DNA of 64,000 bases from Clostridia bacterium (GCA_017435905.1 JAFSEB010000046.1:1186-65185); one strand, 5' to 3'. Shown: positions 1-52,571, counted from the stretch's first letter. A program made the numbers and translations. Notes: generated by a model not told the origin, from the letters alone.

Positions 1-1780
1 CGTTGTCACCGGTGAGCATGACGACCTTGATGCCCATCTTCTGGAGTTCACGCACAGCGCGGGGGCTGTCTTCCTTGATAACGTCAGCAACAGCGATGAT
101 ACCTTCGAGCTTGTCGTCCTTTGCGAAGAACAGCGGGGTCTTGCCCTGCTCGGCGAGCTTCTCGGAAGCGGCCTTGATCTCGGCGGGAACGGGGGTCTTG
201 GTGCTGATGTACTTGTAGTTACCGCCGTTGAGCACGGAGCCGTTCCACTTTGCGGTAAGACCGTTGCCGGGCAGCGCCTGGAAGTCATCCACGGGATCGG
301 CGGTCATGCCGAGCTCGTCAGCCTTCTTCAGGATGGCACGGGCAAGGGGATGTTCGCTCTTGCTTTCAAGTGCAAAGGCCATCTTGAGGAGATCGTTCTC
401 CTTGACGCCCTTGGCGGGGATGATATCGGTGACCTTGGGTTCGCCGCTGGTGATGGTACCGGTCTTATCGAGGGCTACGATATCGACCTTACCGGTCTCT
501 TCGAGGGAGACAGCGGTCTTGAAGAGGATACCGTTCTTGGCGCCCATGCCGTTACCGACCATGATGGCAACAGGGGTAGCAAGACCGAGTGCGCAGGGGC
601 AGCTGATAACGAGAACGGAGATGCCGCGTGCAAGGGCAAAACCGAAGGTCTCGCCGAGGATGAGCCACACGATGGTGGTCACAACGGCAATGGAGATAAC
701 GACAGGAACGAACACGCCGGAAACCTTATCGGCAACCTTTGCGATGGGAGCCTTGGTGGCGGCAGCGTCGCTGACCATCTGGATGATCTGGGAGAGAGTG
801 GTGTCTTCGCCGACGCGGGTAGCCTGGCACTTAATGAAGCCGGACTGGTTGAGCGTAGCGGCGCTGACCTGGTCGCCTTCGGCCTTATCCACAGGGATGG
901 ATTCGCCGGTGAGGGCGGCTTCGTTCACAGCGCTGTGGCCTTCGATGACAACGCCGTCAACGGGGATGTTTTCGCCGGGGCGGACTACGAAGATGTCGCC
1001 CTTGATGACCTGATCGATGCCGACGGTCATCTCTTCGCCGTCACGGATGACGTTGGCGGTCTTGGGAGCGAGCTTCATGAGGCTCTTAAGAGCATCGGTG
1101 GTACGGCCCTTGGAACGGGCTTCGAGCATCTTACCGACGGTGATGAGGGTGAGGATCATCGCGGCGGCTTCGAAATAAAGGTCATGCAGGTAGGCGTGCT
1201 TGTCGGCAAACTCGGTAGCAGCGGTCATGGCGAACACGCAGTAGGTGGAGTACACGAACGCCGCAGAGGAACCGAGGGCGATCAGAGTATCCATGTTGGG
1301 TGCGCCGTGGAGCAGCGTCTTGAAACCGGAAGTGAAGAACTTCTGGTTGATGATCATAACGATGATCGCAAGGAGCATTTCGGTAAGGCCCAGTGCGATG
1401 GGGTTCTTGTCAAAGAAAGCGGGAACCGGGAAGCCCCACATCTTGGAACCCATGGAGAAATACATCAGGACGAGAAGGAAGCCAAGGGAGGTCCAAAGGC
1501 GCTTCTTGAGCTTCGGGGTCTCGGTATCCTTGAGGGCATCCTCGTTGGCGGCGGCGCTCGGAGCACCTGCAGCGGGGCCAGCGCCCTTTTCGGTAGCACC
1601 ATAGCCGGCCGCAGTAACGGCGGCGATGACGTCGGACGGGTTGGCGCTGCCTTCCACGCCCATGGAGTTAGTCAGCAGGCTGACGGAGCAGGACGTGACG
1701 CCGGGAACCTTATTCACGGCTTTTTCGACCCTGGCAACGCAAGCGGCACAGCTCATGCCAGTGACATTGTATTGCTTCAT
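1..1780 (-). CDS. copA: Copper-translocating P-type ATPase, N-terminal ~593 aa. The C-terminus lies beyond the window start
   Basis: Absent from the supplied ORF track because it runs off the edge. Reverse-strand translation from the ATG at 1780-1778 gives MKQYNVTGMSCAACVARVEKAV (GMSCAAC metal-binding domain). Further on come SCPCALGLATP (CPC motif) and DKTGTIT. GGAGG RBS at 1794-1798. Lies directly downstream of csoR. Confidence 0.9.
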   Translation of the reverse strand, partial: MKQYNVTGMSCAACVARVEKAVNKVPGVTSCSVSLLTNSMGVEGSANPSDVIAAVTAAGYGATEKGAGPAAGAPSAAANEDALKDTETPKLKKRLWTSLGFLLVLMYFSMGSKMWGFPVPAFFDKNPIALGLTEMLLAIIVMIINQKFFTSGFKTLLHGAPNMDTLIALGSSAAFVYSTYCVFAMTAATEFADKHAYLHDLYFEAAAMILTLITVGKMLEARSKGRTTDALKSLMKLAPKTANVIRDGEEMTVGIDQVIKGDIFVVRPGENIPVDGVVIEGHSAVNEAALTGESIPVDKAEGDQVSAATLNQSGFIKCQATRVGEDTTLSQIIQMVSDAAATKAPIAKVADKVSGVFVPVVISIAVVTTIVWLILGETFGFALARGISVLVISCPCALGLATPVAIMVGNGMGAKNGILFKTAVSLEETGKVDIVALDKTGTITSGEPKVTDIIPAKGVKENDLLKMAFALESKSEHPLARAILKKADELGMTADPVDDFQALPGNGLTAKWNGSVLNGGNYKYISTKTPVPAEIKAASEKLAEQGKTPLFFAKDDKLEGIIAVADVIKEDSPRAVRELQKMGIKVVMLTGDN

Positions 1781-1825: not shown

Positions 1826-2134
1826 TTATTTCATAAGTTTCTGAAGAGTTGCTGTCAGTTCATCGATGACCTCATCTTTTCCTTCCCTGATGTCGTGCAC
1901 TACACAGGTGTGGATGTGATTGGTCAGCAATTCCCTGTTGAACGCATTGATCGCTGCGGTAACAGCGGCAGACTGCATCAGAATATCGGTGCAGTAAGCA
2001 TCACGTTCAAGCATCCCTTTGATGCCTCGGATCTGTCCTTCAATTCGGTTCAGCCGGTTTACCAGCTTTTTATACTCCGCCTCAGACCGTTCCTTGGTCT
2101 TATGGGAGCAGCAACCCCCTTCACGTTTCGCCAT
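1826..2134 (-). CDS. csoR: CsoR-family copper-sensing transcriptional repressor
   Basis: MAKREGGCCSHKTKERSEAEYKKLVNRLNRIEGQIRGIKGML...YCTDILMQ...HIHTC carries the CsoR C-H-C ligand pattern. Start taken at MAKREGG inside ORF 1826..2167. Confidence 0.85.
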   Translation of the reverse strand: MAKREGGCCSHKTKERSEAEYKKLVNRLNRIEGQIRGIKGMLERDAYCTDILMQSAAVTAAINAFNRELLTNHIHTCVVHDIREGKDEVIDELTATLQKLMK

Positions 2135-2359: not shown

Positions 2360-3562
2360 TTACTCTGCCGTGCAGCGAAGAGCGCCGCCGCCAAAGTAGT
2401 ACGCATCAATGCCATCCTTGCTGAGTGCGTGGAGCGCAGCTTCATCAAAGGTATCGGCAATGAAGATCTTTGCCGCTTCAATGGCAATTTTTGCACAGGA
2501 TGCATCCTCCGAAAAAGCGATCAGCTCCGGCAGTGCGCATTTGGGAAGCCCGCTGCGGGCATCGATATACGGCGGAAGGCAGGAACCGTCCTCCCTGACG
2601 AAATAATACCCAAGTTCGGCGCTTTCCGCAGGATAATCACGCAGCTGCACAACGCTGATGCGCCCTGTAAGGGGAAGTGTTTCAAGCAGGAACACGCCTT
2701 CTTCGCCCCTGTGCAGGAAGGGCACGGCGGTAACGGCTTCGTCCGCATCACGCAGCTGGCGGACAAATCCGTCCTCGCTGATGAGCGAACCGTTGACATA
2801 ACCCTTTGCTGTCAGTTCATCCGCAATATAATCGATGATAAAGGCGTTGTTCAGCCAGAAAAAATCCAGGAAGCGGTCGAAGTCATTTTCTTCCGCAAAG
2901 CGAAGATATGCATCCGAAACATGAAGCACAATCATGTTTCCGTCAAGAAATTCCAGTGATACGGCACCGGGATCGGCGGCATAGGCTGCCGCTTCGGCGA
3001 AAAATGTTTTCAGCGCTTCATTTCGGTACGGATCGTATTCCGCCGCTTCCGGTTCCTCGGAAAGGAACAGGGAACGGTACAACCCGTATACCGGCGCAAG
3101 ATAGTGGTATCTGACGCCTGCATCCTCCAGCAGCATCAGCGCACCGTAAAGGGCAGGATCGACTTCGATCACTTCGTTGACATGTGCGTTGATGTAGCAG
3201 AGGTTTTTATGATCCTCATACTCCGCTTCCGCATTGAAGATGCGGTATGCGGCAATGCACGATTCGCTGTAAAGCTTTGTCAGGGCTTTCTTTTCCTCGG
3301 TGGCGGAGGTCTCCCCCGCCCCGAGGTCATAGACAAAGCTGAAATCGTCACCGCAGGTCATCTCTCCCCCATCGGATACGGTGATCTCCATCACCCCCGG
3401 TTCCGTTGTCAGCAGGGCGTTAAGCCCATACCCAAAGGAACCGACGGCGACGATGAGCGCAACTACCAGGAGGGCGATCCTGAGTTTGATCCGCCCTTCC
3501 GGTATTTCGATATGGGTGACCCGCTCGATGAGGGGCCTGTCGTTTGCAAGCGGCCTCTTCAT
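2360..3562 (-). CDS. Membrane-anchored hypothetical protein with distant ApbE (FAD:protein FMN transferase)-like sequence pattern
   Basis: N-terminal TM helix (IALLVVALIVAVGSFGYGL). By-eye resemblance to ApbE blocks: YLAPVYGLY, LDFFWLNNAFIIDYIADELTAKGY, GYYFVREDGSCLPPYIDARSGLP. The ATG at 3562 lies 2 nt after the upstream stop. The longer TTG start at 3583 is less likely. Confidence 0.6.
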   Translation of the reverse strand: MKRPLANDRPLIERVTHIEIPEGRIKLRIALLVVALIVAVGSFGYGLNALLTTEPGVMEITVSDGGEMTCGDDFSFVYDLGAGETSATEEKKALTKLYSESCIAAYRIFNAEAEYEDHKNLCYINAHVNEVIEVDPALYGALMLLEDAGVRYHYLAPVYGLYRSLFLSEEPEAAEYDPYRNEALKTFFAEAAAYAADPGAVSLEFLDGNMIVLHVSDAYLRFAEENDFDRFLDFFWLNNAFIIDYIADELTAKGYVNGSLISEDGFVRQLRDADEAVTAVPFLHRGEEGVFLLETLPLTGRISVVQLRDYPAESAELGYYFVREDGSCLPPYIDARSGLPKCALPELIAFSEDASCAKIAIEAAKIFIADTFDEAALHALSKDGIDAYYFGGGALRCTAE

Positions 3563-3563
3563 C

Positions 3564-4880
3564 TTAGAACGCAGCGGATGCAAGCAGCAGCAGGAACACG
3601 ATGATCAGCAGCAGGATGCACCCGAAGGAAGCGATGAAGCCCTTTCTGCATGCCTTGAAATTGCGGATGTAGTTCTTCTTGCGGAAGATGATCGCCGCAA
3701 TGATGCCGATGATGGGCAGCAGGAAGGAAAGGATCACATAGATGGCGCTGCCGGTATCGTGGATGGGTCTGTCAAGGATGACCTCGCTGGTGGCAAGGTT
3801 CTCTTCTTCCACATCCTCATCCGGAGCTTCCGTGTTCACGCCGATGATGGAAAGGGTCTTGAGCGGCACATTGCGCTCACGGATCTTCTTATACTCGGCG
3901 ATCTCCTCTTCGCTGCCGTACACATAGTGGTCATGACCGATGAGCGTGAGCTCCGGCTCTTTTCCGTTGCTGTAATCGTGCTGGGAAGGATCGTAGGTGA
4001 AAAGCGCCTTGTGCTTTTCAAGCTTGGGATCCGGCAGCGGAATGGCGGAAATGAGCGCACGGGTGTAGGGGTGCAGCGGGTAGTTGAACAGCTCTTCCGA
4101 GGTGGCGATCTCCACGATCTTACCTTTGTAGATAACGCCGATGCGGTCGGAAATGTAACGCACGATGGAAAGGTCGTGGGCAATGAACAGGTAGGTGGTG
4201 TTGCGCTCCTCCTTGAACTTGTTCATCAGGTTGAGGATCTGCGCGCGGATGGATACATCAAGTGCGCTGATGGGCTCGTCCGCCACAACAAATTCCGGTT
4301 CCATGACCATGGCCCTTGCAAGGCCGACACGCTGGCGCTGGCCGCCGGAAAACTCATGGGGATAGCGGGTCAGGTGCTCGGGCAGCAGACCGACATCCTC
4401 GATGATCTTTTCCACCTTGCGGACACGGTCGGTGTCGTCTTCATAAAGATGGAAGTTGTAAAGGCCTTCGGAAATGATGTATTCCACGGTGGCACGCTCG
4501 TTAAGGGAGGCGGCAGGATCCTGGAATACCATCTGGATGTTCCTGACCACTTCACGGTCCAGCGAATGAGGGATCTTGCCGGAAATGCGCACGCCCTTAT
4601 ACTGGATCTCGCCCTTGGAGCAGGTGTTGGCACGGATCACCGCACGGCCGATGGTGGTCTTACCGGAGCCGGATTCGCCCACGAGGGAGAACGTTTCGCC
4701 CTTGTAGATATCAAAGGAAGCATCCTTGACCGCACGGACGATGTTATCGCCCTTGCCGAAGTTGATATCCACATTTTTCACGGAAAGAAGGATCTCTTTT
4801 CCGTTCTCGGCGATGGGCCCATGCTCGGGGAAATGGCCGGTTCTGATCTCCGAAACCTTATTGTTTTTCTCTTTTCCCAT
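3564..4880 (-). CDS. Opp/Dpp-family ABC ATPase (OppF-like) with a ~100-aa C-terminal extension ending in a 2-TM hairpin
   Basis: Walker [18 protein letters not shown] signature and [12 protein letters not shown] oligopeptide C-terminal motif, then the tail ...[25 protein letters not shown]...[23 protein letters not shown] at 4880 is preceded by AGGTGA. Confidence 0.85.
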
Positions 4881-4890
4881 AGCAGTCACC

Positions 4891-6639
4891 TTAAATATTG
4901 AATACTTTTCTCAGGGTACCGTGGATATCGCGGATGATCTCAGGCTTTTCGATCTTCGGTGCCCGGGGGTCAAGCAGCCAGGTCTTGGCATAATGCGTAT
5001 CGGATACCTTGAACATGGGCGGTTCTTCCAGCGTATCCACCGTGAGGCAGTAAGGATTGCGGGGGGCAAAGGCATCGCCCTTGATCCTGTTGTACAGGGA
5101 GGGCGGCGTGCCGCCGATGGAGTAAAGCTTCATACCGCGGTCCATCAGCTGCGGCAAGGAGGAAAGCAGCACCCAGGTATAGGGGTGACGGGGATCGTAG
5201 AAGATCTCCTCCGTGGTGCCGACCTCGATGATCTGGCCCGCATACAGCACCGCAACACGGTCTGCCACGTTGGCAACAACGCCAAGGTCGTGGGTGATGA
5301 ACACGATGGTATACTTGAATTCCTTCTGCAGATCCTTGATGAGCTTCAGGATCTGTGCCTGAATGGTCACGTCAAGAGCCGTGGTGGGCTCGTCGCAGAT
5401 GAGGATCTTCGGATGGCAGGAAAGCGCAATGGCGATAACGATACGCTGGCGCATGCCGCCCGAATACTGGAAGGGATAATCGTCAAAACGCATCTCCGCA
5501 TTGGGGATGCCCACCTTCTTCATCAGCACGATGGCACGCTTCTTCGCTTCCACCTCGGAAACGTTCTGGTGCTTCATGATGACGGAGGTGATCTGGTGGC
5601 CGATGGTCAGGATCGGGTTCAGGGACGTCATCGGATCCTGGAAGATGGTGGCGATCTTGCGGCCGCGGATCTCTGCCCAGTTGGCAACGCAGGAGGTCTT
5701 TGCCACATTCAGTACGGAGGAACCGTAGAGCTTGTTGTTCTTGCCCTGATCGTAGCGCACACGGAACATGACGTTTTCAAAGACGCCGTTGCGCTGCTTT
5801 TCATCGTTCAGATCCACGCCGATGGTGAGAGCGGTCTTCATGCACTTCATGAGCTTGCGCATGAGCGGCGCCCACTTTGCGGAGGGATAGCGGTACAGGG
5901 AAAGATACACTTCCTTGGCAATGACAGCGTTGCGCTTCTTGGTCTCTTCGCTGATCTCGCCGGCGCACTCGGTCCTGTACTGTGCCTTGAGGGCTGCCAT
6001 CTTTTCCGCATATGCCTTGTTGTAGGCCGCATCGTTCTTGGTTTTCGCAGTGTGATCTTTGACAAGTGCCTTGCGCTCGGCGTCAAGCGCCTTGATCTTG
6101 CGGTCGCACTCATCGATCTCCGCCTGCGCCTCGCGGATCATGCCTTTTTCCGTGCGGCGGTCATAAGCCTGCTTGCGGTTGAAAGCTTCCGTGCGGCGGT
6201 AAACGAGTTCCTTACGGGTGGTTTCAAATTTGGTCTGCTCTGCCTCGTCAAGGGTCAGGCGCTCCTGCTTTTCCTTTTCAAGGGCACGCATGGCCTGATA
6301 GGTCTTGGCGCCAAGCTCCAGCTTGGAATACTCGTTGAGCTTCTTTTCCGCCTGTGCCATGATCTTCTCCGCAAGGGAGTGCACGGGGGCAACGGTCTCG
6401 GTGAATTCGTCATCGTTGAAGATGATGTCACCCTGATCGATAAAGCCGTTGTTATCCAGCATGCCGGCAAAGGTCTTGGTAAGAACGGATTTGCCGCAGC
6501 CGGATTCGCCCACGATGGCGATGGATTCGTTTTCGTAAATATCCAGCGATACGCCGCGGATGGCGGTCAGGATCCTGCCGCGCACACGGAAGCGGACGTA
6601 AAGATCGCGGATGGAGAGCAATACTTTCTTTTCTTCCAT
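4891..6639 (-). CDS. Opp/Dpp-family ABC ATPase (OppD-like) carrying a ~240-aa charged insertion
   Basis: Walker [40 protein letters not shown]. Residues ~79-320 are a K/E/A/R-rich segment absent from the paralog at 48743-49804. AGGGAGGG RBS. Confidence 0.9.
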
Positions 6640-6653
6640 TTAAAAGCCCTCCC

Positions 6654-7643
6654 TTACAGCATGTGGGTACGGGGGTCGGCAGCGTCGCCAAGGCTCTGGC
6701 CCACGAGGAACAGAACGATGGAGATGAAGGCCGACAGCATAACGGGGCACCAGAATTCCCAGCCCCAGCCGGGGGTGACCATGGCAGGCTGTGCGTTGTA
6801 AACGAGCTTACCGAGGGTGGTATCGGAAATACCGAGGCCGATGTAGCTGAGGAACGCTTCGGAGCCGATGTAGCCCGGCAGGGAGTTCGCCATCATGGTC
6901 ACGATGAAGGAGATCATGAAGGGCAGGATGTTCTTCGTTGCAATGCGCAGCGTTGAGGTACCGAGGCACTTGGAAGCAAGGTTGTATTCACGGTCACGGA
7001 TAATGATGACCTGCGTACGGATGGAGTAGGCGATACCGATCCAGCCGGTAACACACATGGCGAACACGAGCGTTGCAAAGTTCGGGGAGAATACAAGAAC
7101 GAGAACGGAGGTAACGAGGGTGCCGGGAACGTTGGCAATGACGTTGCGGATCTCGTTCATGATGATATCCACTTTCTTTGAGAAGCCCCACAGCGCACCG
7201 ATCATGATACCGATGGAGAAGTTGATGATGGTGCAGAGGATCGCAAGAGAGATGGAGATACGGGAGCCGTACCACAGCGCATCGAAGGTGGACTGGCCGG
7301 ATTCGCCGGTGCCGAAGATCCATTTAATATGGAAGCCATACTTTTCGATCGCCGCTGCGGGGGTCAGGTGCTTCGAGAGGGGATCCATGATGTTCTCAAA
7401 CTTGTCATAGCCGGTGAAGGTGGGATAGATGTAGGTGAACACAAGGATCAGCACCATCATGGCAATGACAAGGATGTTGGACTTCTTGGAGAAGAACACG
7501 CGGCCTACGCTGCGCCAGTAGGAATAACGGGGCGCAACGATCTTTTCCACCGCCGCCGCATCCTGCGGCGCCCTTTGGAAGAGCTGTTCATCCGTCAAGC
7601 CGGTATGCGCAAGATCAAAAAGCTTTTCTTTTGTTTCTGTCAT
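6654..7643 (-). CDS. Opp/Dpp-family ABC permease (OppC-like)
   Basis: Typical OppC layout (RYSYWRSVGRVFF N-terminus, multiple TM helices, EAFLSYIGLGI block). ATG at 7643 is preceded by AGGTGA. The GTG at 7652 overlaps the upstream stop. Confidence 0.85.
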   Translation of the reverse strand: MTETKEKLFDLAHTGLTDEQLFQRAPQDAAAVEKIVAPRYSYWRSVGRVFFSKKSNILVIAMMVLILVFTYIYPTFTGYDKFENIMDPLSKHLTPAAAIEKYGFHIKWIFGTGESGQSTFDALWYGSRISISLAILCTIINFSIGIMIGALWGFSKKVDIIMNEIRNVIANVPGTLVTSVLVLVFSPNFATLVFAMCVTGWIGIAYSIRTQVIIIRDREYNLASKCLGTSTLRIATKNILPFMISFIVTMMANSLPGYIGSEAFLSYIGLGISDTTLGKLVYNAQPAMVTPGWGWEFWCPVMLSAFISIVLFLVGQSLGDAADPRTHML

Positions 7644-7648
7644 CTTGA

Positions 7649-9220
7649 TCACCTTGCCTTAGTCGTAAAGGAGATACGCGGGTCCATAATGGCCATCGTG
7701 ATGTCGCCGAGAACGGCGGAAATGATGGACAGTACGCCGTAGAACAGCGCAACGCCGACGATCACCTGGTTGTCATAGGCACCGATCGCTTCCACAAGGA
7801 GGCCGCCGACGCCGGGGATGGTGTAGATACGTTCCATCATGATGGAGCCGGACAGCGCCATGATGATGGTGTTGGGGAGACCGTGGGTGATCGGGATCGC
7901 CGCATTCTTGAAGATGTGCTTTGCGAAGATCTCAAACTCGCTCAGGCCCTCTGCACGGGCGAACTTCACGTAATCGGAGTTCATCTGGTCCACCATGTAG
8001 CGGCGCATCCACTTCATGGTACCGGCAACGGAGCTTGCAAGGCTTGCCACCACCGGCGTGATGTACATCAGCACCGTGGGGTTGTCCAGCGAGAAGATGA
8101 CCGGCAGGCCGATCTTCACCGCCACCGCCTTGAACATGAAGTAGTACGCAAGGGACGGCACGGCGATCATGAAGATCACGTATGCGTTGCCGAGGTTGTC
8201 CACCCAGGTATCCTTCTTCTTCGCCATCAGGATGCCGAGGGGCAGGCCGAGGAGGTAGGTAAAGAAGGATGCAAGGATACTGATGATAAAGGAATAGAAG
8301 ATCTTGGACTTGCTGTCCTTATGGAGGTTGATGTTGGTGTAATCATCCGTATAACGGTCGGCAAGAACAAGGTTCAGCTCACGGGAACCGGGAGCATATA
8401 TTGCGCTGTGCAGGTCATCCGCACTTTCCGCCACAAGACCCGTGGGGTAATAGGTGGTGGTAGGCACGTAGGTACCCTGCCGCTGTGTCATCGTCTGGAA
8501 TACATCCACGCCCTTGTTGACGCTGAAGGATGTACCAAGCGTAAGTTTCACGAAGTTCTGGTGTACATAGGGGAAGTACTGATCGAAATAAAGGAGATAC
8601 TTATGCAGCGTGCCGTTACCGAGAATGGCCGGGGAGAATTTCTCGCCGCCGTAAGCAGGGTCATACCAGGTAAAGGTCAGGCCGCGCTCGCCGATGTCCT
8701 CTTCCACATAGTTGATGTCGTCAAAGGTGAGAAGGCTCGAAAAGAAATCCCATACCCTCTCGTGCACCGGCGTATTGATGTAGGCAAACAGCATAGCTGC
8801 GCCGCCCGTTGCAATGCGCTTGGAGTTTGCCATAACGGCATCAAGGCGTTTGACGGTATAGCCGTTTTCTTCGCAGTAATCCAAATACTGCTGGATGTAA
8901 GGCTTTGCAGCCTCGGGATCCTGTTCTGCAGTCCTGCCGATAGAAGCGATGGTGGACTTGAATTCCTCATCCATTTCGCCCTTTGCAACAAGCTCGTTCA
9001 GGTAATCGTTATAGGAGATAAGGTCAAGATAGCCGTATTTCTCCCAGGTAGTATACATGTAGCTGATCTTCTGGTTGTTAGCCAGCTTTGCATACTGTTC
9101 ATCTTCCGAGAAGATGAGCGTATTATCCATCGCATAGAACAGAAGAACCATGATGATGGAGACCGCGATCACCACGGATACACAGCCGCGGCCAACGCGT
9201 TTAAAAAAATACTTTAACAT
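7649..9220 (-). CDS. Opp/Dpp-family ABC permease (OppB-like) with an enlarged first extracytoplasmic loop (523 aa)
   Basis: MLKYFFKRV N-terminus, then TM1, then a ~270-aa loop before TM2, then the conserved permease core (YVKFARAEGLSEFEIFAKHIFKNA, IDPRI C-terminus). AGGGAGAA RBS. Confidence 0.85.
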   Translation of the reverse strand: MLKYFFKRVGRGCVSVVIAVSIIMVLLFYAMDNTLIFSEDEQYAKLANNQKISYMYTTWEKYGYLDLISYNDYLNELVAKGEMDEEFKSTIASIGRTAEQDPEAAKPYIQQYLDYCEENGYTVKRLDAVMANSKRIATGGAAMLFAYINTPVHERVWDFFSSLLTFDDINYVEEDIGERGLTFTWYDPAYGGEKFSPAILGNGTLHKYLLYFDQYFPYVHQNFVKLTLGTSFSVNKGVDVFQTMTQRQGTYVPTTTYYPTGLVAESADDLHSAIYAPGSRELNLVLADRYTDDYTNINLHKDSKSKIFYSFIISILASFFTYLLGLPLGILMAKKKDTWVDNLGNAYVIFMIAVPSLAYYFMFKAVAVKIGLPVIFSLDNPTVLMYITPVVASLASSVAGTMKWMRRYMVDQMNSDYVKFARAEGLSEFEIFAKHIFKNAAIPITHGLPNTIIMALSGSIMMERIYTIPGVGGLLVEAIGAYDNQVIVGVALFYGVLSIISAVLGDITMAIMDPRISFTTKAR

Positions 9221-9241
9221 ATTTCTTTCTCCCTTTTTTGA

Positions 9242-9269
9242 CAGGGCAGGGGGCGAACCCCCTGCCCTG
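9242..9269. other. GC-rich stem-loop in the oppA1-oppB1 spacer
   Basis: CAGGGCAGGGGG-cgaa-CCCCCTGCCCTG, a 12-bp perfect stem. No U-tract follows it in the sense (minus) orientation. Confidence 0.6.
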
Positions 9270-9317
9270 CAAGTTTGCCTCTAAGGTTTTGTTTGAAGCG
9301 TGCGCTTCAGCCGGTTA

Positions 9318-11528
9318 TTACCAGAGACCCATCTTGGGAGTCAGATAACCGTCGCCGTAGGGCAGGAGCGCTTCGGTGTAGCACTGCGGATCGCCGTGGT
9401 CGGAACCGATGGCGCCGAGGCCGCCCATGTCGGTGTTGTGCTCAGCACCGCAGGTGGTGTTGTTCTGTACATTGAGGAACTCGGTGGCGTTGTTCAGCGG
9501 GATCAGGTCGAAGCGGACGCAGTCGCCAAGAGCAGCTTCGATGCAGGTCTTGAGGACGTAGGCCTGGTTTTGACCGGTCTCATTGTAGCCAACGTGCGGA
9601 TAGTCGATGACGATCGGGTTGTCAGGGCTGACTTCAAAGCCAATGGTCTTCAGGTCTTCGATGGCAAGAGCCAGTTCCTGAGCGGCGAGTTCCGGATTGT
9701 ACCAGCCATCCCAACCGTCGGTGGAGAGGTTGGCTTCGTCCCAAACAACTACGGGGAACTCATCGGCGGTCAGCTGAGCCTGCACGATCTCACCGTACCA
9801 GGTGCCGGCGGGGAAGGTAGTGGCTTCACCGTTGATGTCGATGGTCACTTCTTCTGCCAGGGAAGCATAGGTGCCGGGAGTCATGGTGTTGCGGATGCTG
9901 ACAGACTTCAGATCCTCACCAACGCTCTGGGAGATGTAGGAAGCACGGTCGATGGCGAAGTTCAGAGCAAGACGGAAGTGCCTGTTCTGGAACGCAGCGC
10001 AGCTGAGCTCCTTCTCGGCATCGGTCTTCATGGAAGCGCCGGCGCCGTCAGCCATGTTGGCGTAGGTCTGGCGATGGAGGTTGAACCAGAAGAGGAAGGT
10101 CGCACGGCCGGTCTCGGAAGTGGTGGCATACTTTTCAAAGTCGCCGTTGGCCTTTGCGGTCTCGATCTGGGCAGCGCGGAGATACATGTAGGTGGTCAGA
10201 CCGTTCATGAAGTTGTCATAAGCGCGGGAAACGTCGCTGCCATCATCATAAACGAGGCTGAAGTTCTTGAGGGTAACGTTGGCAGCATTCCAGTAGCTCT
10301 CGTTGAGCACGTAGTTGACGGAGTTCTTCTCGGTCATGTTGGTGCAGAGGAACTGGCCGCTGTAGGGGATATGGTTCTGGTCGATACCGTAGGTGTAGCT
10401 GGAGGAAGCAGCAGCTTCGGAATACTCAGCAACGCCGAACGCACCGCCCTGGGAGAGGAAGTAGCTGCGGCAGAGGGGCAGGAAGTCGATGGACTGCCAC
10501 ATGGAATCGAAATAGGTGCAGGGGGTGTTGAGGGTGTACTGGAGGGTGAGGTCATCAAGCGCCTTGACGCCGACGGTGGAGAAGTCGGTGGTCTCACCGG
10601 TGAGGTAAGCAGTCATGCCCGCAACGTAGCTGCCGAGGGTGTAGGCATCCTGAAGGTCAGCCTGATGCTGTGCAGCGGCTACCCAGTCGTCAGCAACGAT
10701 GTCCGCAACCTTACGGCCCTGAGAGTCGACCCAGACCATACCGGGGCGGATCTTGATGGTGTAGGTGAGGCCATCGGGGGAGATCTCATAGCTCTCCGCA
10801 AGGTGGGGAGTGAGAACGCCTTCGGGATTGTAAACGTAGAGAAAGTCGTAAGAGGGGCCGATCAGCTTGCTGTCGTTGGAGGTGGCAGCAGCGAAGATGT
10901 CCCAGGTGGTGGCGTTGTCAACGAAGGTGTCAACAACGGTGTCGCTGAAGGTGTAGCCCTTGCCGGCAAGGTATTCCTTGACCTTGGTGGCATAGGTGCC
11001 GGTGCCGAGGCACTCGAGGTAGATCTTCTTGGTCTCTGCGTAATCCTCAGCGGTGATGATCTCGTTGGTGAGGATGTAGTCGCAGTAGTTGGTCATGCCG
11101 CCGCGCCAGGGAGCATAACCGCCGCTGCGGTAGACCTGACGGGTCATGATGTAGCCGGCAACGGGGCCGTACATGGGAGCACCGGTGGAAGCCTGAAGAG
11201 CCTTTGCTTCCGCAACGGCGAGGAGGGCATGGCGCTCGGATACGGTCGCAGCTTCCATGGCGGCGTTGTAGTACTCATAGAACTCGCCAAGGTTGGCCAT
11301 GTAGATCTCTTCGTCAGTCTCGTAGATGGCGAAGGGTTCCTCTACCTCTTCAGGCTCTTCGGAAGCTTCGGGTTCGGTGGAGGCTTCGGGAGCGGTGGAG
11401 GTTTCGGGAGCGGTGGAGGTTTCGGGGGCAGTGGAAGCTTCGGGAGCGGTGGTGTTATCGCCGCCGCAAGCGACCAGCAGGGGGAGCATCAGAGCCAGAA
11501 TAAGGGTGATTGCTGCCAGTTTCTTCAT
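9318..11528 (-). CDS. Family-5 (Opp/Dpp-type) extracellular solute-binding lipoprotein, 736 aa
   Basis: Signal peptide plus lipobox LLVAC(21)GG, a PEAST-rich linker, then a large SBP body. First gene of the five-gene transporter operon. AAAGGAG RBS. Confidence 0.85.
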   Translation of the reverse strand: MKKLAAITLILALMLPLLVACGGDNTTAPEASTAPETSTAPETSTAPEASTEPEASEEPEEVEEPFAIYETDEEIYMANLGEFYEYYNAAMEAATVSERHALLAVAEAKALQASTGAPMYGPVAGYIMTRQVYRSGGYAPWRGGMTNYCDYILTNEIITAEDYAETKKIYLECLGTGTYATKVKEYLAGKGYTFSDTVVDTFVDNATTWDIFAAATSNDSKLIGPSYDFLYVYNPEGVLTPHLAESYEISPDGLTYTIKIRPGMVWVDSQGRKVADIVADDWVAAAQHQADLQDAYTLGSYVAGMTAYLTGETTDFSTVGVKALDDLTLQYTLNTPCTYFDSMWQSIDFLPLCRSYFLSQGGAFGVAEYSEAAASSSYTYGIDQNHIPYSGQFLCTNMTEKNSVNYVLNESYWNAANVTLKNFSLVYDDGSDVSRAYDNFMNGLTTYMYLRAAQIETAKANGDFEKYATTSETGRATFLFWFNLHRQTYANMADGAGASMKTDAEKELSCAAFQNRHFRLALNFAIDRASYISQSVGEDLKSVSIRNTMTPGTYASLAEEVTIDINGEATTFPAGTWYGEIVQAQLTADEFPVVVWDEANLSTDGWDGWYNPELAAQELALAIEDLKTIGFEVSPDNPIVIDYPHVGYNETGQNQAYVLKTCIEAALGDCVRFDLIPLNNATEFLNVQNNTTCGAEHNTDMGGLGAIGSDHGDPQCYTEALLPYGDGYLTPKMGLW
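11335..11465 (-). repeat. Tandem ~18-bp coding repeats for the (T/S)APE(A/T)S linker of the SBP
   Basis: Plus strand shows GCTTCGGGAGCGGTGGAGGTTTCGGGAGCGGTGGAGGTTTCGGGGGCAGTGGAAGCTTCGGGAGCGGTGG. The protein reads TAPEASTAPETSTAPETSTAPEASTEPEASEEPEE. Confidence 0.8.
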
Positions 11529-11691
11529 TGACGTTCTCCTTTCGCAATTTGTTTCTTATCATTTCCGCGTGGTTTGGGATTGCGCGGAAACGGCTGCAAT
11601 AATTCGGCAAAGCCGAAATCAAGATCGAATTTGGAAATCGGGCAGAATTGTGAATAAATTCTTAAATTCGAAAAATGCGACGCCCTTCGTA

Positions 11692-11720
11692 TTGACAAAT
11701 ACCCGACGGGGGTATATATT
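11692..11720 (+). promoter_or_regulatory. Consensus-like promoter on the plus strand with an embedded CsoR-type operator (box A, 11699-11715)
   Basis: TTGACA (11692-11697)-a-ATACCCGACGGGGGTAT-ATATT. The -10 is TATATT at 11715-11720 with a 17-nt spacer. Perfect ATACCC-N5-GGGTAT palindrome. Confidence 0.5.
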
Positions 11721-11905
11721 GTGTTTGTCGGGATGGTTGCCGGACAAACAGGCAACCGTTCCATCCTGCCTCACGTTTCAAAAAAACGAAGAAAGCCGCC
11801 TTGCGTTTGCATAACAACATTGGCGAAATCTTTTGCTTCAACAGGATTCACTTCAAATAAACATTTTTATTTATATGCCCATGCGGAACCGCACGGGTAA
11901 AAGAG

Positions 11906-11922
11906 ATACCCAAATAGGGTAT
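11906..11922. promoter_or_regulatory. CsoR-type operator (box B), perfect palindrome
   Basis: ATACCCAAATAGGGTAT. The extended palindrome AGATACCC-aaata-GGGTATCT spans 11904-11924. It lies just downstream of the minus-strand promoter at 11927-11955. Confidence 0.55.
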
Positions 11923-11926
11923 CTAA

Positions 11927-11955
11927 ATGTTATACCCCTTCCGAGTATTTGTCAA
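11927..11955 (-). promoter_or_regulatory. Minus-strand promoter with an embedded CsoR-type operator (box C, 11932-11948). Candidate promoter of the Opp1 operon
   Basis: Minus strand reads TTGACA-a-ATACTCGGAAGGGGTAT-AACAT, the same layout as the csoR promoter, and both share the 12-mer GGGGTATAACAT. It lies 427 nt upstream of the oppA1 ATG. Confidence 0.5.
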
Positions 11956-12242
11956 TAGGCTTTTCACGAAGTTTTTGCTTTTTTGTCGTTTTTTACAATC
12001 AAACGCTGAAAATATTTGCATTGTTCCTGATACACATTACATTTCTTCATGCATGCACCTGTTTTTTCACTTGCATGCATGCTTTTTTTCTGTTGTCCGC
12101 ATGCATTCGCTTTCGCTTCACTTCACTGAAGCCATCCTGAAAAAAGTGCCGAAATCAGCCACCTTTCTTTCGTTCCTGTTTCAGCTTTTGCAGTGTGCGG
12201 GATGCGATGAGCGAAGGGCTGTTTTTTGCCGAACATAAAGAA

Positions 12243-12420: not shown

Positions 12421-13137
12421 TTATGCCCAGCGTCCGCCCCTGCGTCCGCCCCGGCAGCCGCCGCTGTAGCTTCCGGAATTTTCGCTGTAATCCCAGCTGC
12501 CGCCAACGGCATTTCCGTTTTCATCGGCACCCCAGCAGCCGTACCAGCCGTTGCCGTCCCAGCAGTAGTATTCACCGCTGAAGCAGCCATTCCTGTTGCT
12601 GTTCCAGCAGCCTTCCCAGTTTTCACCGTTCCAGCAGTAGTACGCATCGCCATCCCAGCAGTAATAGTCGCCGTTCCAGCAATAGTACTCCACATCGCTG
12701 CTGCCTTCAAAGGCAGGGATGCCGCCCTCATAGGTAAGGGTGCTGACATAGCTGACAGTCTCTTCCTGCGCTGCGGTGATCTGCGGTGCAGCTGCTGCCG
12801 CAGGCGCTTCGTAGCTTTCTTCCACAGGTGCGGCAGGCACACCGGGATCGGCAGCAGCATCCTGTACGGATGCCGCAAACTGTTCCTGCTGCGCTTCGGC
12901 GGAGGTTTCCCCATCTCCATCGGCCGCATACAGGTTATAATATGCCGCCAGCGCATCAAGATCCTCGACGCCCGTTGCGGCTGCAATTTCCATCACATCA
13001 TTTACATTGACTTTGCTCAGCAATTCCTCACTCACCCCGGGCAGGAGCGCACCCGTTTCGGTGCAGGCAGCCATCATGGGGACCGCCGCCAGGAACAGTG
13101 TGAGTGCCACGATCCGTTTCATCCAATCCCGTTTCAT
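12421..13137 (-). CDS. Cys/Trp/Tyr-rich repeat lipoprotein, hypothetical (no family recognised)
   Basis: MKRDWMKRIVALTLFLAAVPMMAAC lipobox, an acidic Ala/Pro linker, then a C-terminal region with four YYCW(N/D)G repeats plus GCW and GCF variants, ending in a GGCRGGRRGGRWA tail. AAAGGAG RBS before the ATG at 13137. Confidence 0.75.
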   Translation of the reverse strand: MKRDWMKRIVALTLFLAAVPMMAACTETGALLPGVSEELLSKVNVNDVMEIAAATGVEDLDALAAYYNLYAADGDGETSAEAQQEQFAASVQDAAADPGVPAAPVEESYEAPAAAAAPQITAAQEETVSYVSTLTYEGGIPAFEGSSDVEYYCWNGDYYCWDGDAYYCWNGENWEGCWNSNRNGCFSGEYYCWDGNGWYGCWGADENGNAVGGSWDYSENSGSYSGGCRGGRRGGRWA

Positions 13138-13192
13138 TTTTTCTCTCTTTTCTCCTTTCGTTTTTGATCTGCCTTGTTTTGGCATGCCTGAT

Positions 13193-13220
13193 TGTATACC
13201 CCACACAGGTATTTTGTCAA
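13193..13220 (-). promoter_or_regulatory. Promoter of the Cys/Trp-rich lipoprotein gene with an embedded CsoR-type operator (box E, 13196-13212)
   Basis: Minus strand reads TTGACA-aa-ATACCTGTGTGGGGTAT-ACAAT, nearly superimposable on the csoR promoter TTGACA-tg-ATACCTATACGGGGTAT-AACAT. Confidence 0.6.
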
Positions 13221-13479: not shown

Positions 13480-13770
13480 CAATTGGTCATACTATAAAAA
13501 TGCGCAGACGGAATTATGCCCGCATCAGAAGGTCAAGAGAGCCGGCGGCTGCTGTGAGCCGGTCCGGAAGATGCTGCGGCAGCCTCCTTCCCGAGCAGAG
13601 CGCCCCAACAAAACAGTAAGGCGTTCCGGTCGCCCCGTTACAGGCTATAAGCTTGACTGAGCTTTGAATTTGAGTGATCGCCCGTTTGCATTTGGCATGC
13701 AGCGGCGATAATCAGGGTGGTACCGCGATTGATTCGTCCCTGAAGCCGATAACGGCTTCAGGGATTTTTT
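13480..13770 (+). promoter_or_regulatory. T-box riboswitch leader of the ilv-leu operon (candidate Leu CUC specifier)
   Basis: AGAGAG bulge and GCUGUGA distal loop in stem I. F-box-like CCGTTA. Canonical T-box AATCAGGGTGGTACCGCG at 13710-13727 overlaps the terminator stem. CTC at 13584-13586 sits in the predicted specifier loop. Confidence 0.85.
13738..13770 (+). terminator. T-box leader terminator
   Basis: CCCTGAAGCCG-ataa-CGGCTTCAGGG followed by ATTTTTT. Confidence 0.85.
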
Positions 13771-17208: not shown

Positions 17209-18870
17209 ATGCTTTCCAACAACATCAAAAACGGCGTGGAACGCGCCCCCAACCGCAGCCTTCTTTATGCGCTCGGCTATACTCAGGAAGAGCTTTCCCG
17301 CCCCATCATCGGCGTCGTCAGCTCCCATAACGAGATCGTCCCCGGCCACATGGATCTTGACAAGGTCGCCGAGGCGGTCAAAGCAGGTGTGCGCGCCGCC
17401 GGCGGCACGCCCGTCATGTTCCCTGCCATTGCCGTATGCGACGGCATCGCCATGGGACACATCGGCATGAAATACTCTCTCGTCACCCGTGACCTCATTG
17501 CGGATTCCACCGAGGCCATGGCCATGGCCCACCAGTTTGACGGCCTTGTGATGATCCCCAACTGCGATAAAAACGTGCCCGGCCTGCTGATGGCGGCGGC
17601 ACGTCTCAATATTCCTGCCATCATCTGCTCCGGCGGCCCCATGCTTGCAGGCAAGCTGAAGGACGGCAGGCGCACCTGCCTCAGCCACATGTTTGAGGCC
17701 GTCGGTGCATTCCATGCCGGCACCCTTGATGCAAAGGGCGTTCTCGATTACGAAGAAAATGCCTGCCCCACCTGCGGCAGCTGCTCCGGCATGTACACCG
17801 CCAACTCCATGAACTGCCTTGCGGAAGCCATCGGCATGGCACTGCCCGGCAACGGCACCATTCCTGCCGCCTACAGCGCACGCCTTCGCCTTGCCAAGCA
17901 CGCCGGCATGAAGATCATGGAGCTTGTGGAAAAGAACATCCGTCCCCGTGACATTATGACCGCAGCGGCGTTCCGCAATGCGGAAACCGTGGATATGGCC
18001 CTTGGCTGCTCCACCAACACCATGCTGCACCTGCCTGCCATCGCCCATGAAGCCGGCGTGGAGGTCAGCCTTGACGGCTGCAACCAGATCAGCGCACGCA
18101 CCCCGAACCTCTGCCACCTTGCCCCTGCCGGCGATACCTTCATGGAAGACCTTGACCTTGCAGGCGGCGTTCCGGCGGTCATGAAGGAGCTTGCGAAGCG
18201 TGACCTTCTGAACCTTGATGTGATGACCGTCACCGGCAGGCCCATGCGTGACACCGTAGAAGCTGCCGAAAACCGCAACAGCGAGATCATCCGCCCCATT
18301 GAGAACCCCTACAGCGAAAACGGCGGCATCGCCGTGCTGAAGGGCAACCTTGCAAAGGACGGCTGCGTGGTAAAGCAGGCTGCCGTTGCCCCCAGCATGA
18401 TGGAGCACGAAGGCCCTGCCCGTGTGTTCAACAGCGAGGAAGAGGCCATCACCGCCATTTACAACAGGAAGATCAACCCCGGCGATGTGGTGGTCATCCG
18501 CTACGAAGGCCCCAAGGGCGGTCCCGGCATGCGTGAAATGCTCAACCCCACCAGCGCCATCTGCGGCATGGGTCTTGGCGAAAGCGTTGCCCTCATCACC
18601 GACGGCCGCTTCTCCGGCGCTACCCGGGGCGCTTCCATCGGCCATGTGAGTCCGGAAGCTGCGGCAGGCGGCACCATCGCCCTTGTGGAAGAGGGCGACA
18701 GGATCCACATCAACATCCCCAAGTGTGAGATCACCCTGCTTGTTTCCGAGGAAGAGCTTGACCGCCGCCGCGCAAACTGGGTCTGTCCGGAACCGAAGGT
18801 GAAGACCGGCTACCTTGCCCGGTATGCAAAGCTCGTCAGCTCCGCCGATAAGGGCGCCATCCTGCAGTAA
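17209..18870 (+). CDS. ilvD: Dihydroxy-acid dehydratase
   Basis: [23 protein letters not shown]...CDKNVPG...[15 protein letters not shown], 553 aa. Confidence 0.95.
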
Positions 18871-18885
18871 ACGAGGTAAGTGTGC

Positions 18886-20430
18886 ATGAAGCAGATCAAG
18901 ATCTTTGATACCACCCTCCGTGACGGCGAACAATCCCCCGGCTGCAGCATGAACCTGCGGGAGAAGATCGAAGTGGCACGCTGCCTTGAACGGCTGAAGG
19001 TGGATGTCATCGAAGCCGGCTTTGCCATCTCCTCCCCCGGCGATTTTGAATCCGTACAGACCATTGCCCGTACGGTAAAGGAATGCTCCGTTGCATCCCT
19101 TGCCCGTGCTGCGGTGAAGGATATCGACACCGCATGGGAAGCGGTGAAGGATGCCGTGGATCCCCGTATCCACCTTTTCATCGCCACAAGCCCCCTGCAC
19201 ATGGAATACAAGCTGCGCATGAAGCCCGAAGAGGTGCTCGCACGCACCGCAGAAATGGTGAAGTATGCGAAGCATTACTGCAGCAACATCGAGTTTTCCG
19301 CAGAGGATGCCACAAGAAGCGATCCCGCCTTCCTTGCAAAGATTGTGGATGTTGCCATCCGCAACGGTGCCACCACCGTGAATATCCCGGATACCGTGGG
19401 CTACACCACCCCCTCCGAGATGCGCTGGCTGATCGAATATCTGCGTGAAAACGTGGAAAACAGCGACACGGTGGATTTCTCCGTGCACTGCCACAACGAC
19501 CTTGGCATGGCATGCGCCAACTCCCTTGCGGGCGTGCTTGGCGGCGCCACCCAGATCGAGTGCACCATCAACGGCCTTGGCGAGCGTGCCGGCAACACCT
19601 CCATGGAGGAGGTCGTCATGGCCATGCGCACCCGGGGCGATATCTACAAAGCCACCACCCGTATCGATACCACCCAGATCTACCGTGCCAGCAAAACGGT
19701 CTATGACATCATCGGTCAGAGTGCGCCCCTCAACAAGCCCATCGTGGGCAAAAATGCCTTCATGCATGAATCCGGCATCCACCAGCACGGCGTGCTTGCC
19801 AACAAGCAGACCTATGAGATCATGACCCCCGAATCCATCGGCATCCGGGCGGACAACATCGTGCTCGGCAAGCACAGCGGCAAGCATGCCTTTGAGACCC
19901 GCCTCAAGGAACTGGGCTACGCCCTTTCCACGGAAGAGCTGCTGCGCTGCTTCGAGGAATTCAAGATCCTCTGCGACAAGAAAAAAACCGTCAGCGATGC
20001 GGACCTTGAAGCCCTTGTTGCCCACAGCGCCAAGAAGGAAGCGAAGGCGGTGGGCGGCTACGAGCTTGACTGGTTTGCGGTGCACACCTCCAACTTCACC
20101 ACCGCCACCAGCACCATCAGCCTCAAACGGGGCGAAGAACGCTTTGAAGCGGTCTGCCTTGGCGACGGCCCCATCGATGCTTCCTTTAAGGCCATCGATG
20201 CCATCATGAAACCCGTTCCCCATTCCTTTGCGGAGTACACCATCAACTCCATCTCCGAAGGTAAGGATACCCTCGGCAGCGTTACCCTCAGGCTCTGCGC
20301 ACAGGGCCGTGTATTCCCCGGCAGGGGTCTTTCCACGGACATCATCGAGGCGAGTATCCTTGCCTATATCGATGCGGCAAACCGCCTGCAGGATACCTTC
20401 CCCAACAGCGAAACCGATAAGGAGGCATAA
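18886..20430 (+). CDS. leuA: 2-Isopropylmalate synthase
   Basis: MKQIKIFDTTLRDGEQSPG...HCHNDLGMA, with a C-terminal regulatory domain. GAGG RBS 9 nt before the ATG at 18886. Confidence 0.95.
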   Translation: MKQIKIFDTTLRDGEQSPGCSMNLREKIEVARCLERLKVDVIEAGFAISSPGDFESVQTIARTVKECSVASLARAAVKDIDTAWEAVKDAVDPRIHLFIATSPLHMEYKLRMKPEEVLARTAEMVKYAKHYCSNIEFSAEDATRSDPAFLAKIVDVAIRNGATTVNIPDTVGYTTPSEMRWLIEYLRENVENSDTVDFSVHCHNDLGMACANSLAGVLGGATQIECTINGLGERAGNTSMEEVVMAMRTRGDIYKATTRIDTTQIYRASKTVYDIIGQSAPLNKPIVGKNAFMHESGIHQHGVLANKQTYEIMTPESIGIRADNIVLGKHSGKHAFETRLKELGYALSTEELLRCFEEFKILCDKKKTVSDADLEALVAHSAKKEAKAVGGYELDWFAVHTSNFTTATSTISLKRGEERFEAVCLGDGPIDASFKAIDAIMKPVPHSFAEYTINSISEGKDTLGSVTLRLCAQGRVFPGRGLSTDIIEASILAYIDAANRLQDTFPNSETDKEA

Positions 20431-49804: not shown

Positions 49805-49819
49805 AATGTTAAGACCTCC

Positions 49820-52446: not shown

Positions 52447-52571
52447 TTTTGCTTCTCCTTCAATTTTCGATAAAAAAGACAGTAAAGATCAGTAAAACGA
52501 TAAGATTGATAAGCTCGAAAAAGGGCTCTACCCCGCAAAGACAGAGCAGAGCCGCTTCTTTTGAATGGTTT

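Follow-up and report, generated by a model that had tools for sequence, protein, structure and literature searches.

Why should a complete peptide-type importer be encoded inside a copper-efflux locus? In a 64,000-nucleotide (nt) stretch of DNA from a Clostridia bacterium (GCA_017435905.1, JAFSEB010000046.1:1186-65185; hereafter the window, with all coordinates counted from its first letter), the five genes of an Opp-type ATP-binding cassette (ABC) importer and a sixth gene for a membrane-anchored ApbE-fold protein precede csoR and copA, and promoter-like sites with CsoR-type operators are found on both sides of this six-gene cassette. The reading we favour, with a probability of roughly 0.55, is that an oligopeptide importer of the Ami/Mollicutes type, with the ApbE-fold protein as accessory, is CsoR-controlled in one clade of Oscillospiraceae and would be induced by copper. 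The predicted control of the importer by CsoR is well supported by comparison of related loci, and in this bacterial group copper stress probably turns on the uptake of peptides. All genes between copA and a gene for a Cys-rich lipoprotein, separated from oppA1 by a 0.9-kb intergenic region, are on the minus strand in the order oppA-oppB-oppC-oppD-oppF-ApbE-fold-csoR-copA; the gene calls agree in this with a preliminary description of the window, which had listed a binding protein, permeases, ATPases, an ApbE-like protein, csoR and copA, all on that strand.

CsoR-type operators and promoter-like sites in the window

The window was searched for the box ATACC-N7-GGTAT with at most one mismatch. 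Five CsoR-type boxes were found across the 64 kb, at 2201, 11699, 11906, 11932 and 13196, as compared to 0.54 expected by chance; a count of five was reached in none of 100 shuffles, and the other ~50 kb of the window held no box. The published CsoR operator is a TAC-N9-GTA dyad that encloses G/C tracts (consensus ATATACCCCTNAGGGGTATAT; PMC3902906). The window boxes agree with that site definition and overlap their target promoters. Two of them belong to a promoter-like site upstream of oppA1 (TTGACA-17-TAACAT, 11955–11927, minus strand), with one operator in the spacer (11932–11948) and the other just past the −10 element (11906–11922). Another (2201–2217) lies inside the spacer and −10 region of the site that precedes csoR-copA (TTGACA-18-TAACAT, 2225–2196, minus strand). 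The proposal of the preliminary description that the cassette sits between CsoR-boxed promoters is thus borne out at the level of predicted sites.

Two boxed sites had been missed previously. The first (13220–13191, operator 13196–13212) is a fourth boxed promoter and lies upstream of the gene for the Cys-rich lipoprotein (12421–13220, minus strand, with the open reading frame (ORF) at 12421–13206), which is predicted to be a neighbouring member of the CsoR regulon. The second is a promoter-like site on the plus strand (TTGACA-17-TATATT, 11692–11720, an 11/12 match) that carries an operator in its spacer (11699–11715) and is convergent with the opp promoter. It repeats the module at 11931–11957 in inverted orientation (27 nt, 85% identity), ~210 nt from the opp promoter, and no conserved ORF was found downstream of it; its operator might serve as an additional one that forms a roadblock, or the site could be a copper-controlled antisense promoter. 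Pattern scans returned no further minus-strand promoter-like site between 11927 and the ATG of oppA1, and nothing terminator-like from the ApbE-fold gene to csoR, in accordance with the earlier statements that there is no better promoter between 11900 and this ATG and no strong terminator between the ApbE-like gene and csoR.

The repressor gene csoR (1826–2134, minus strand) encodes a copper-sensing protein of 102 amino acids (aa) of the CsoR/RcnR family (Pfam PF02583, E 5.5e-30), for which RicR is the best NCBIfam match; the Cu(I) ligand pattern C-H-C can be read from the translation as Cys48, His73 and Cys77. The 5′ part of copA (1–1780, minus strand), a gene for a Cu(I) P1B-type ATPase with a GMSCAAC metal-binding motif at its N-terminus, is truncated by the window start. 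On a contig from the same strain (L094; L numbers denote loci and contigs throughout), 99.97% identical to the window over 14.5 kb, copA encodes 915 aa with the domains HMA, E1-E2_ATPase and Hydrolase, and downstream of it come two copZ genes and then a terminator. The two copZ genes (L094 17699–18184) are near-identical. As the sole same-species contig, L094 is at this level of identity uninformative about strain-level polymorphism of the operators.

We infer from these sites, and from their conservation described below, that the cassette would be read from a sigma-70-type promoter with CsoR operators in the spacer and just downstream. At low copper, apo-CsoR would occlude the promoters of opp, of csoR-copA-copZ and of the Cys-rich lipoprotein gene; upon a rise in cytoplasmic Cu(I), CsoR would leave the DNA and the three units would be expressed together. 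Such a locus resembles the CsoR-repressed operons of B. subtilis (copZA) and Streptomyces lividans (csoR/copZA) in its C-H-C CsoR, its TAC-N9-GTA operators with G tracts and its copA/copZ targets. Unlike these, the predicted regulon here adds a complete Opp-type importer and exported Cys-rich proteins, and the opp promoter has two tandem operators as well as a third, inverted one 210 nt downstream.

The leader between the boxed promoter and oppA1 (11529–11926, minus strand) extends over ~395 nt. Scanned against Rfam at both gathering and permissive thresholds, it contained no riboswitch, no T-box and no other match, and an RNA element upstream of oppA was likewise absent from seven loci without neighbouring cop genes (non-cop loci). 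ORFs of 20–103 aa in the leader or at 11720–12240 had no relatives in any locus examined. The whole leader folds more stably than shuffled sequences (z = −3.0) and includes a strong 5′ hairpin at 11870–11897. The sole hairpin with a T-tract (~11790–11818) folds at −8.1 kcal/mol, no better than shuffles, and was rejected as a terminator. As tblastn with the window CsoR against the window matched the csoR gene alone, the leader holds no csoR remnant. Blastn of the intergenic DNA against relatives showed it to be too diverged to align outside the boxes.

Distribution of the cassette and its linkage to copper genes

Relatives of the 400-aa ApbE-fold protein were sought in one genome per species, and the best 80 of the resulting 301 were examined. 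Here, oppF lies immediately upstream of the ApbE-fold gene in 75 of the 76 loci with enough flank, and the full set oppABCDF precedes it in 55/58 loci. The hosts are Lachnospiraceae and Oscillospiraceae, represented by metagenome-assembled genomes (MAGs) and isolates, and many of the relatives come from gut MAGs of poultry and other livestock. No recurrent regulator or metal gene was found beside the cassette in non-cop loci, where the flanks vary and include genes for a signal peptidase, a HAD hydrolase, an ABC exporter and a PepF-like peptidase (identities by eye); the latter, of the M3 type and likewise identified by eye, is located upstream of the cassette in seven non-cop loci. The constant gene content within variable flanks indicates that the six-gene cassette is the real unit, and in Lachnospiraceae and Oscillospiraceae it is normally unrelated to copper. 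No description of this cassette was found in the literature searched.

Copper genes are found beside the cassette solely in the nearest relatives of the window, which form one Oscillospiraceae clade of at least 14 species or lineages. It comprises L002–L009 and L013, from Candidatus Scatomorpha species and other Oscillospiraceae, and the metagenome contigs L081–L093, whose OppA is 56–65% identical to OppA1. In ten GTDB species and three further metagenomic lineages, the cassette is flanked by a boxed promoter on one side and a boxed copA on the other. Several of these loci are seen in part: in three of the ten (L003, L007 and L008) the region upstream of oppA lies outside the locus, and only the box before csoR-copA and the cop genes after the cassette were seen. 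L001 and L005 are also without upstream flank, and the L001 contig ends before any cop gene, a CsoR-type box right behind the ApbE-fold gene being all that is seen, so that the grounds for its clade membership are weaker. L086 starts inside an oppA array and its upstream region is outside the contig. The opp-csoR-copA linkage from which the preliminary description had argued is thus kept within one Oscillospiraceae clade but is absent from most relatives.

Within the clade, csoR, copZ and a Cys-rich gene are found in at least five arrangements around the cassette. In the window and in Scatomorpha the order is promoter, opp, ApbE-fold gene, boxed promoter, csoR, copA. In L002, a boxed promoter is followed by csoR, copZ, opp, the ApbE-fold gene, a box and copA. 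In L091, csoR and a strong terminator precede the boxed promoter, which is separated from oppA by 170 nt. L092 and L093 have csoR, a boxed promoter, a gene for a secreted Cys/Gly/Tyr/Asn-rich protein, opp, the ApbE-fold gene, a box and copA. Finally, L081–L090 have a boxed promoter, two or three oppA paralogues, oppBCDF, boxes and copA, with no ApbE-fold gene. This last group represents one species, with tandem oppA paralogues whose products are 57–70% identical to OppA1 (e.g. L081 7692–14523) and, in most copies, two CsoR boxes upstream of copA.

Throughout these rearrangements the promoter keeps its design. The window, L002, L081–L085 and L087–L093 have in common TTGACA, one base, an operator that fills the spacer, and the −10 element, and a second, more degenerate operator follows 4–16 nt past the −10. 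The Scatomorpha loci (L004, L006, L009 and L013) have a conserved promoter and a conserved 17-nt element, ATAGGG-N4-GGGGTAT, just past the opp −10 and ~110–130 nt upstream of oppA, which shows the length and the right half of a CsoR box but has GGG instead of CCC in its left half. A perfectly conserved TATACCCGTATTTGGTATAT is present ~200 nt further upstream, directly after the terminator of the preceding gene. Sites of the form ATAC-N9-GTAT number 70 in 351 kb of cop-linked loci versus 17 in 1.155 Mb of other loci, and a box within 900 nt upstream of oppA was found in 0/50 non-cop loci. The clearest case is L091, where the predicted terminator would insulate the boxed promoter from csoR; this promoter is the best match before oppA (11/12, 170 nt upstream, with two weaker matches nearby), and no terminator was found between it and oppA. 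The case for control of the importer by CsoR in this clade is built mainly on the retention of operators before oppA while the surrounding genes are rearranged.

The same loci have to be weighed against a historical accident, an unlikely explanation that nevertheless has to be taken seriously. The cassette would have been inserted once into an ancestral csoR-copZ-copA locus, and the boxed promoters would belong to, or be relics of, other genes. If opp responded to copper, this would then be read-through that was not selected for, with the true promoter unrecognised or the genes expressed constitutively at a low level. This would fit the loci in which the boxed promoter precedes csoR and copZ (L002) or a Cys-rich gene (L092/L093) before it reaches oppA, the ~395 nt without a gene after the window promoter, which resemble a deletion scar and contain an inverted copy of the promoter module, the fact that the cop-linked loci are each other's nearest relatives, and the boxed promoter that copA always retains for itself. 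It fits less well with linkage and operators that persist across lineages with OppA only 52–65% identical and with csoR, copZ and Cys-rich genes rearranged. Moreover, in L091 the terminator sets the boxed promoter apart from csoR and leaves it directly before oppA, the window leader holds no alternative promoter-like site, and in L092 no terminator was found between the upstream small genes and oppA.

CsoR control of an oligopeptide importer remains the reading that we prefer, and several observations count against it. All cop-linked loci belong to one clade, and shared ancestry explains part of the conservation; the relatives in this comparison are all MAGs or metagenome contigs. The promoter-proximal site in Scatomorpha is TAG-N9-GTA and not TAC-N9-GTA, with the perfect box ~200 nt upstream of the −35 element. 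In the window, the leader is long (~395 nt) and has a convergent boxed promoter-like site inside it. The opp genes could be passengers in L002 and L092, where csoR-copZ or the Cys-rich gene comes first behind the boxed promoter. The L081–L090 lineage has lost the ApbE-fold gene while being cop-linked, from which it follows that the ApbE-fold protein is not needed for what the copper link provides. Finally, the cargo is read solely from homology at ~25–30% identity.

The importer, its likely cargo and the proposed benefit

With a family-5 binder, two BPD_transp_1 permeases and two oligo_HPY-tailed ATPases all present, the importer is of the Opp/Dpp type. All five genes are on the minus strand. 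The substrate-binding lipoprotein OppA1 (9318–11528, 736 aa, SBP_bac_5, PF00496) bears an LVAC lipobox and a Pro/Glu/Ser/Thr linker. In the permease OppB1 (7649–9220, 523 aa), the BPD_transp_1 domain (PF00528) covers residues 325–517 only, and an extracytoplasmic insert of ~280 aa separates the first transmembrane (TM) helix (TM1, residues 13–31) from the next (312–330). The second permease, OppC1 (6654–7643, BPD_transp_1 and OppC_N), is of canonical size (329–332 aa). OppD1 (4891–6639, 582 aa, PF00005 and PF08352) contains a charged insertion of ~234 aa (residues ~76–309) between Walker A and the remaining domain, on either side of which it is ~60% identical to the OppD of a second Opp system in the window. 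OppF1 (3564–4880, 438 aa, or 438–441), with ABC_tran and oligo_HPY domains (PF00005, PF08352), has a C-terminal extension (residues ~335–438, 3564–3890) that ends in two TM helices (383–401 and 418–436).

A motif in the OppF1 extension, HDTGS...LSFLLP...FRKxNYxRNxKACxKG, is kept in all relatives examined, including those without an ApbE-fold gene. A physical coupling of the OppF hairpin to the ApbE-fold protein was considered and rejected, as the two are not lost together: the hairpin is retained in the lineage that lacks the ApbE-fold gene.

For all five subunits the best NCBIfam match is a Mollicutes Opp model (NF043077–NF043081, MMSYN1_0165–0169; MMSYN1_0166 for OppC1), with scores below every curated cutoff (OppD 710.3 vs 740, OppF 433.5 vs 800, OppC 308 vs 370, OppB 191.2 vs 350 and OppA 50.4 vs 650). 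OppD1 aligns end to end with the Mollicutes OppD model, insertion included. In a phmmer search of the PDB, the nearest solved relatives of OppA1 are the S. pneumoniae proteins AmiA (1.3e-57), AliC (7.3e-52), AliB (1.3e-50) and AliD (1.3e-45), aligned over ~510 residues within positions 197–729. The pneumococcal Ami/Ali binders are large and promiscuous and accept peptides of up to 16 residues, and AmiC, of 498 aa, has two extracellular domains after TM1 (residues 31–278) (PMC11192437). OppB1 has a similar layout, with 523 vs 498 aa and a large region after TM1, the comparison being one of topology only. The odd subunit sizes are hallmarks of the Ami/Mollicutes-type oligopeptide permease family and not copper traits.

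The importer can accordingly be set beside two known systems. It resembles pneumococcal Ami (AmiACDEF with AliA-D) in its large lipoprotein binder and its two oligo_HPY ATPases, in an oversized permease whose topology recalls AmiC, and in the extra tandem binders of some relatives of the window cassette. It differs from Ami in its longer ATPases (OppD1 582 aa and OppF1 438 aa, as compared to ~355 aa for AmiE and ~308 aa for AmiF), in an extra N-terminal region of ~200 aa in OppA1, and in having the OppD1 insertion, the OppF1 TM hairpin, the ApbE-fold gene and the predicted CsoR operators. With the Opp system of Mollicutes (JCVI-syn/Mycoplasma mycoides) it has in common the best-matching model for five subunits and the insertion in OppD; unlike there, oppA comes first in the window, and an ApbE-fold partner and an OppF hairpin are outside the description of those models.

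The second Opp system (47802–54813, minus strand) comprises OppA of 727, OppB of 313, OppC of 562, OppD of 353 and OppF of 313 aa. Its ATPases are ~60% identical to OppD1 and OppF1, which makes the two Opp systems of the window fairly close paralogues with inserts in different permeases. This second, more canonical system can serve housekeeping uptake. The preliminary description was right that every subunit of the first system except OppC departs from canonical size (736, 523, 329–332, 582 and 438–441 aa), and that the second has canonical ATPases and OppB, albeit with an oversized OppC (562 aa). It had taken the atypical sizes as a hint of copper-related cargo, and this does not hold: being family hallmarks, present in carriers most of which have no cop linkage, the sizes say nothing about copper cargo.

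We consider it improbable that the system imports a dedicated copper-buffering thiol (of the glutathione or gamma-Glu-Cys type), a metallophore or a metal-peptide complex. There is precedent for such cargo. According to the NCBIfam models, the cargo of Opp-family systems includes nickel, opine metallophores and glutathione; in S. pyogenes, copper is buffered by glutathione that the cell has imported (PMC7733945), and the Opp-type GisABCD of S. aureus imports both reduced and oxidized glutathione (PMC10355420). Secreted Cys-rich proteins are also present at these loci and predicted to be co-regulated. In addition, four OppA positions (Met77, His386, Cys395 and Cys662) are invariant or nearly so in 11 sequences of the cop-linked clade, where 52 sequences of other clades have D/E/N, N/S/T, V/I and S, respectively; these residues could point to thiols or metals but may simply reflect phylogeny. 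Conversely, OppA1 scores 25.6 against NikA (cutoff 393), 18 against CntA (cutoff 800) and 28.4 against GsiB (cutoff 594), the solved proteins nearest to it bind peptides of up to 16 residues promiscuously, the cassette is unlinked to copper in most species, and the tandem oppA paralogues of L081–L090 are typical of broad nutritional peptide uptake. The scores far under the cutoffs, together with the kinship to oligopeptide binders, make nickel or a metallophore an unlikely substrate, and the suggestion of such cargo in the preliminary description is not upheld. Our best guess, from homology, is that ordinary oligopeptides are the substrate.

The GisABCD-Ggt system of S. aureus, which bears on thiol supply, also combines an ABC importer with one accessory enzyme-like protein (PMC10355420). 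The likeness is one of description: the accessory of Gis is a cytoplasmic gamma-glutamyl transpeptidase, as opposed to an extracytoplasmic ApbE-fold protein, and copper regulation is not reported for Gis.

Under the preferred reading, the importer would bring in oligopeptides once CsoR has left the DNA. Most likely, the cell would benefit by being supplied with amino acids, particularly those with branched chains, which are made by way of copper-sensitive Fe-S dehydratases; according to PMC9576991, citing Macomber and Imlay 2009, these dehydratases are inactivated by copper, which leaves cells auxotrophic. The putative PepF-like peptidase gene next to seven non-cop cassettes would also fit a role in nutrition. 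As a possible second benefit, Cys-, His- or Met-containing peptides might add to the buffering of copper in the cytoplasm. A bolder and rather improbable version is that CsoR co-derepresses CopA/CopZ efflux, exported copper-binding Cys-rich proteins and a dedicated importer of thiol- or His/Met-rich peptides with its ApbE-fold accessory. In that case, the imported peptides would possibly be fragments of the same Cys-rich proteins, or thiol peptides from host or diet, and cytoplasmic copper buffering would be transcriptionally responsive instead of passive; in streptococci, thiol buffering of copper is described as a transcriptionally unresponsive component of copper tolerance (PMC7733945). The ApbE-fold pseudo-enzyme would then make up a new class of accessory subunit, located outside the cytoplasm, in Opp-type importers.

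In its main form, the reading amounts to a new combination of two known kinds, a CsoR regulon with a recruited Ami/Mollicutes-type importer, to which an undescribed family of ApbE-fold accessories is added. If confirmed, a metal-sensor regulon would include a complete peptide importer and tie copper intoxication to the acquisition of nutrients or thiols in strict gut anaerobes. No report of a CsoR-controlled Opp system was found in the literature searched. Copper-supplemented feed is common in poultry and livestock. As many relatives live where feed copper is thus common, the locus may bear on the tolerance of gut commensals to it.

The ApbE-fold protein and neighbouring features

The sixth gene of the cassette (2360–3562, minus strand) starts with an ATG 1 nt past the oppF stop and encodes a 400-aa membrane-anchored protein with an N-terminal TM helix at ~35–55, by which it would be tethered outside the membrane. 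Scans of Pfam and NCBIfam gave no match, and Pfam ApbE (PF02424) was not hit even at E ≤ 1; within the family, it is reached by two of 31 members, with a best E of 2e-5. The fold emerged from an AlphaFold model built from 31 relatives, with a predicted local distance difference test (pLDDT) score of 92. In a Foldseek search of the PDB, each of the top 35 matches is an ApbE, Ftp or FmnB structure (lowest E 4.5e-12), with TM-scores of 0.62–0.73, normalised by target length.

The residues required for catalysis are a different matter. Conserved catalytic residues of ApbE are His257, Ser241 and Asp285 in V. cholerae numbering (PMC12052999). In HMMER-PDB alignments, which to ApbE are weak, the position of His257 is Pro338 here and Pro, Ala or Leu across the family, and that of Asp285 is Lys365 here and E, D or Q in the family. 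Independently of this weak alignment, no conserved or near-invariant His occurs anywhere in the 31-member family alignment. The lack of a conserved His suggests that the ApbE-fold protein is not a flavin transferase. The 400-aa protein thus has an ApbE fold and is probably not a canonical flavin transferase; the ApbE-like designation of the preliminary description stands for the fold, as supported by Foldseek and AlphaFold, but not for the catalytic His, which is absent. As compared to ApbE, Ftp and FmnB, it has the fold in common over ~360 aligned columns, as well as the extracytoplasmic, membrane-tethered location, and differs in an identity of 10–19%, in the missing Pfam match, in the family-wide loss of the catalytic His, in the loss of the Asp285 equivalent in the window protein and in the lack of a flavinylation target motif nearby. 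The motif, Dxx(s/t)gA(T/S), is absent from OppA, B, C, D and F, CsoR, CopA and the lipoprotein, and no true ApbE gene was found in any locus examined.

An active flavin transferase or flavin adenine dinucleotide (FAD) pyrophosphatase, in a system for extracytoplasmic flavin handling, would agree with the clear ApbE/Ftp/FmnB fold, the membrane anchoring outside the cell, the weak Pfam ApbE matches of 2/31 members and the ApbE-like FmnB of Listeria, which is reported to work with a transporter (PMC9973259), yet it is very hard to reconcile with a family in which no His is conserved, with Pro/Ala/Leu at the His257 position and Lys at that of Asp285 in the window protein, with the lack of a flavinylation motif in every cassette protein and with a family profile that does not reach canonical ApbE.

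This profile finds 1129 proteins among 1.84 billion representatives, or ~1000 clusters at 50% identity, a number small enough to indicate that canonical ApbE is not reached. The protein is probably an accessory of the importer, either without catalytic activity or with a different one, and its near-obligatory position after oppF argues for an accessory role. If confirmed, there would be ~1000 clusters of His-less ApbE-fold proteins, whose genes nearly always come right behind the oppF of a distinctive Opp system. The family would then point to an unrecognised accessory of a type of transporter that is very common in two major gut taxa, the Lachnospiraceae and the Oscillospiraceae.

The Cys-rich lipoprotein of the window (~233–237 aa, with its start probably near 13134) carries Cys/Trp-rich C-terminal repeats of the type YYCW[ND]G, and no family was assigned to it in Pfam/NCBIfam scans. 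L092 (9405–9905) and L093 (359–994) encode a different secreted Gly/Asn/Tyr/Cys-rich protein with GGCYG repeats, of 166 and 211 aa, respectively. The window lipoprotein and the secreted protein of L092/L093 may be undescribed copper-induced extracellular copper-binding proteins.

Two T-box leaders on the plus strand, at 13496–13744 and 34161–34380, score just over the Rfam gathering threshold. The former precedes ilvB-ilvN-ilvC (L094 gene calls) and is divergent from the CsoR-boxed lipoprotein gene. At the other end of the locus, past the terminator that follows the copZ genes, L094 encodes a 477-aa protein (18477–19910) with four C-terminal CxxC...CxxC zinc-ribbon repeats and no Pfam match on record, and the next genes are hydF and hydG/hydE-like genes.

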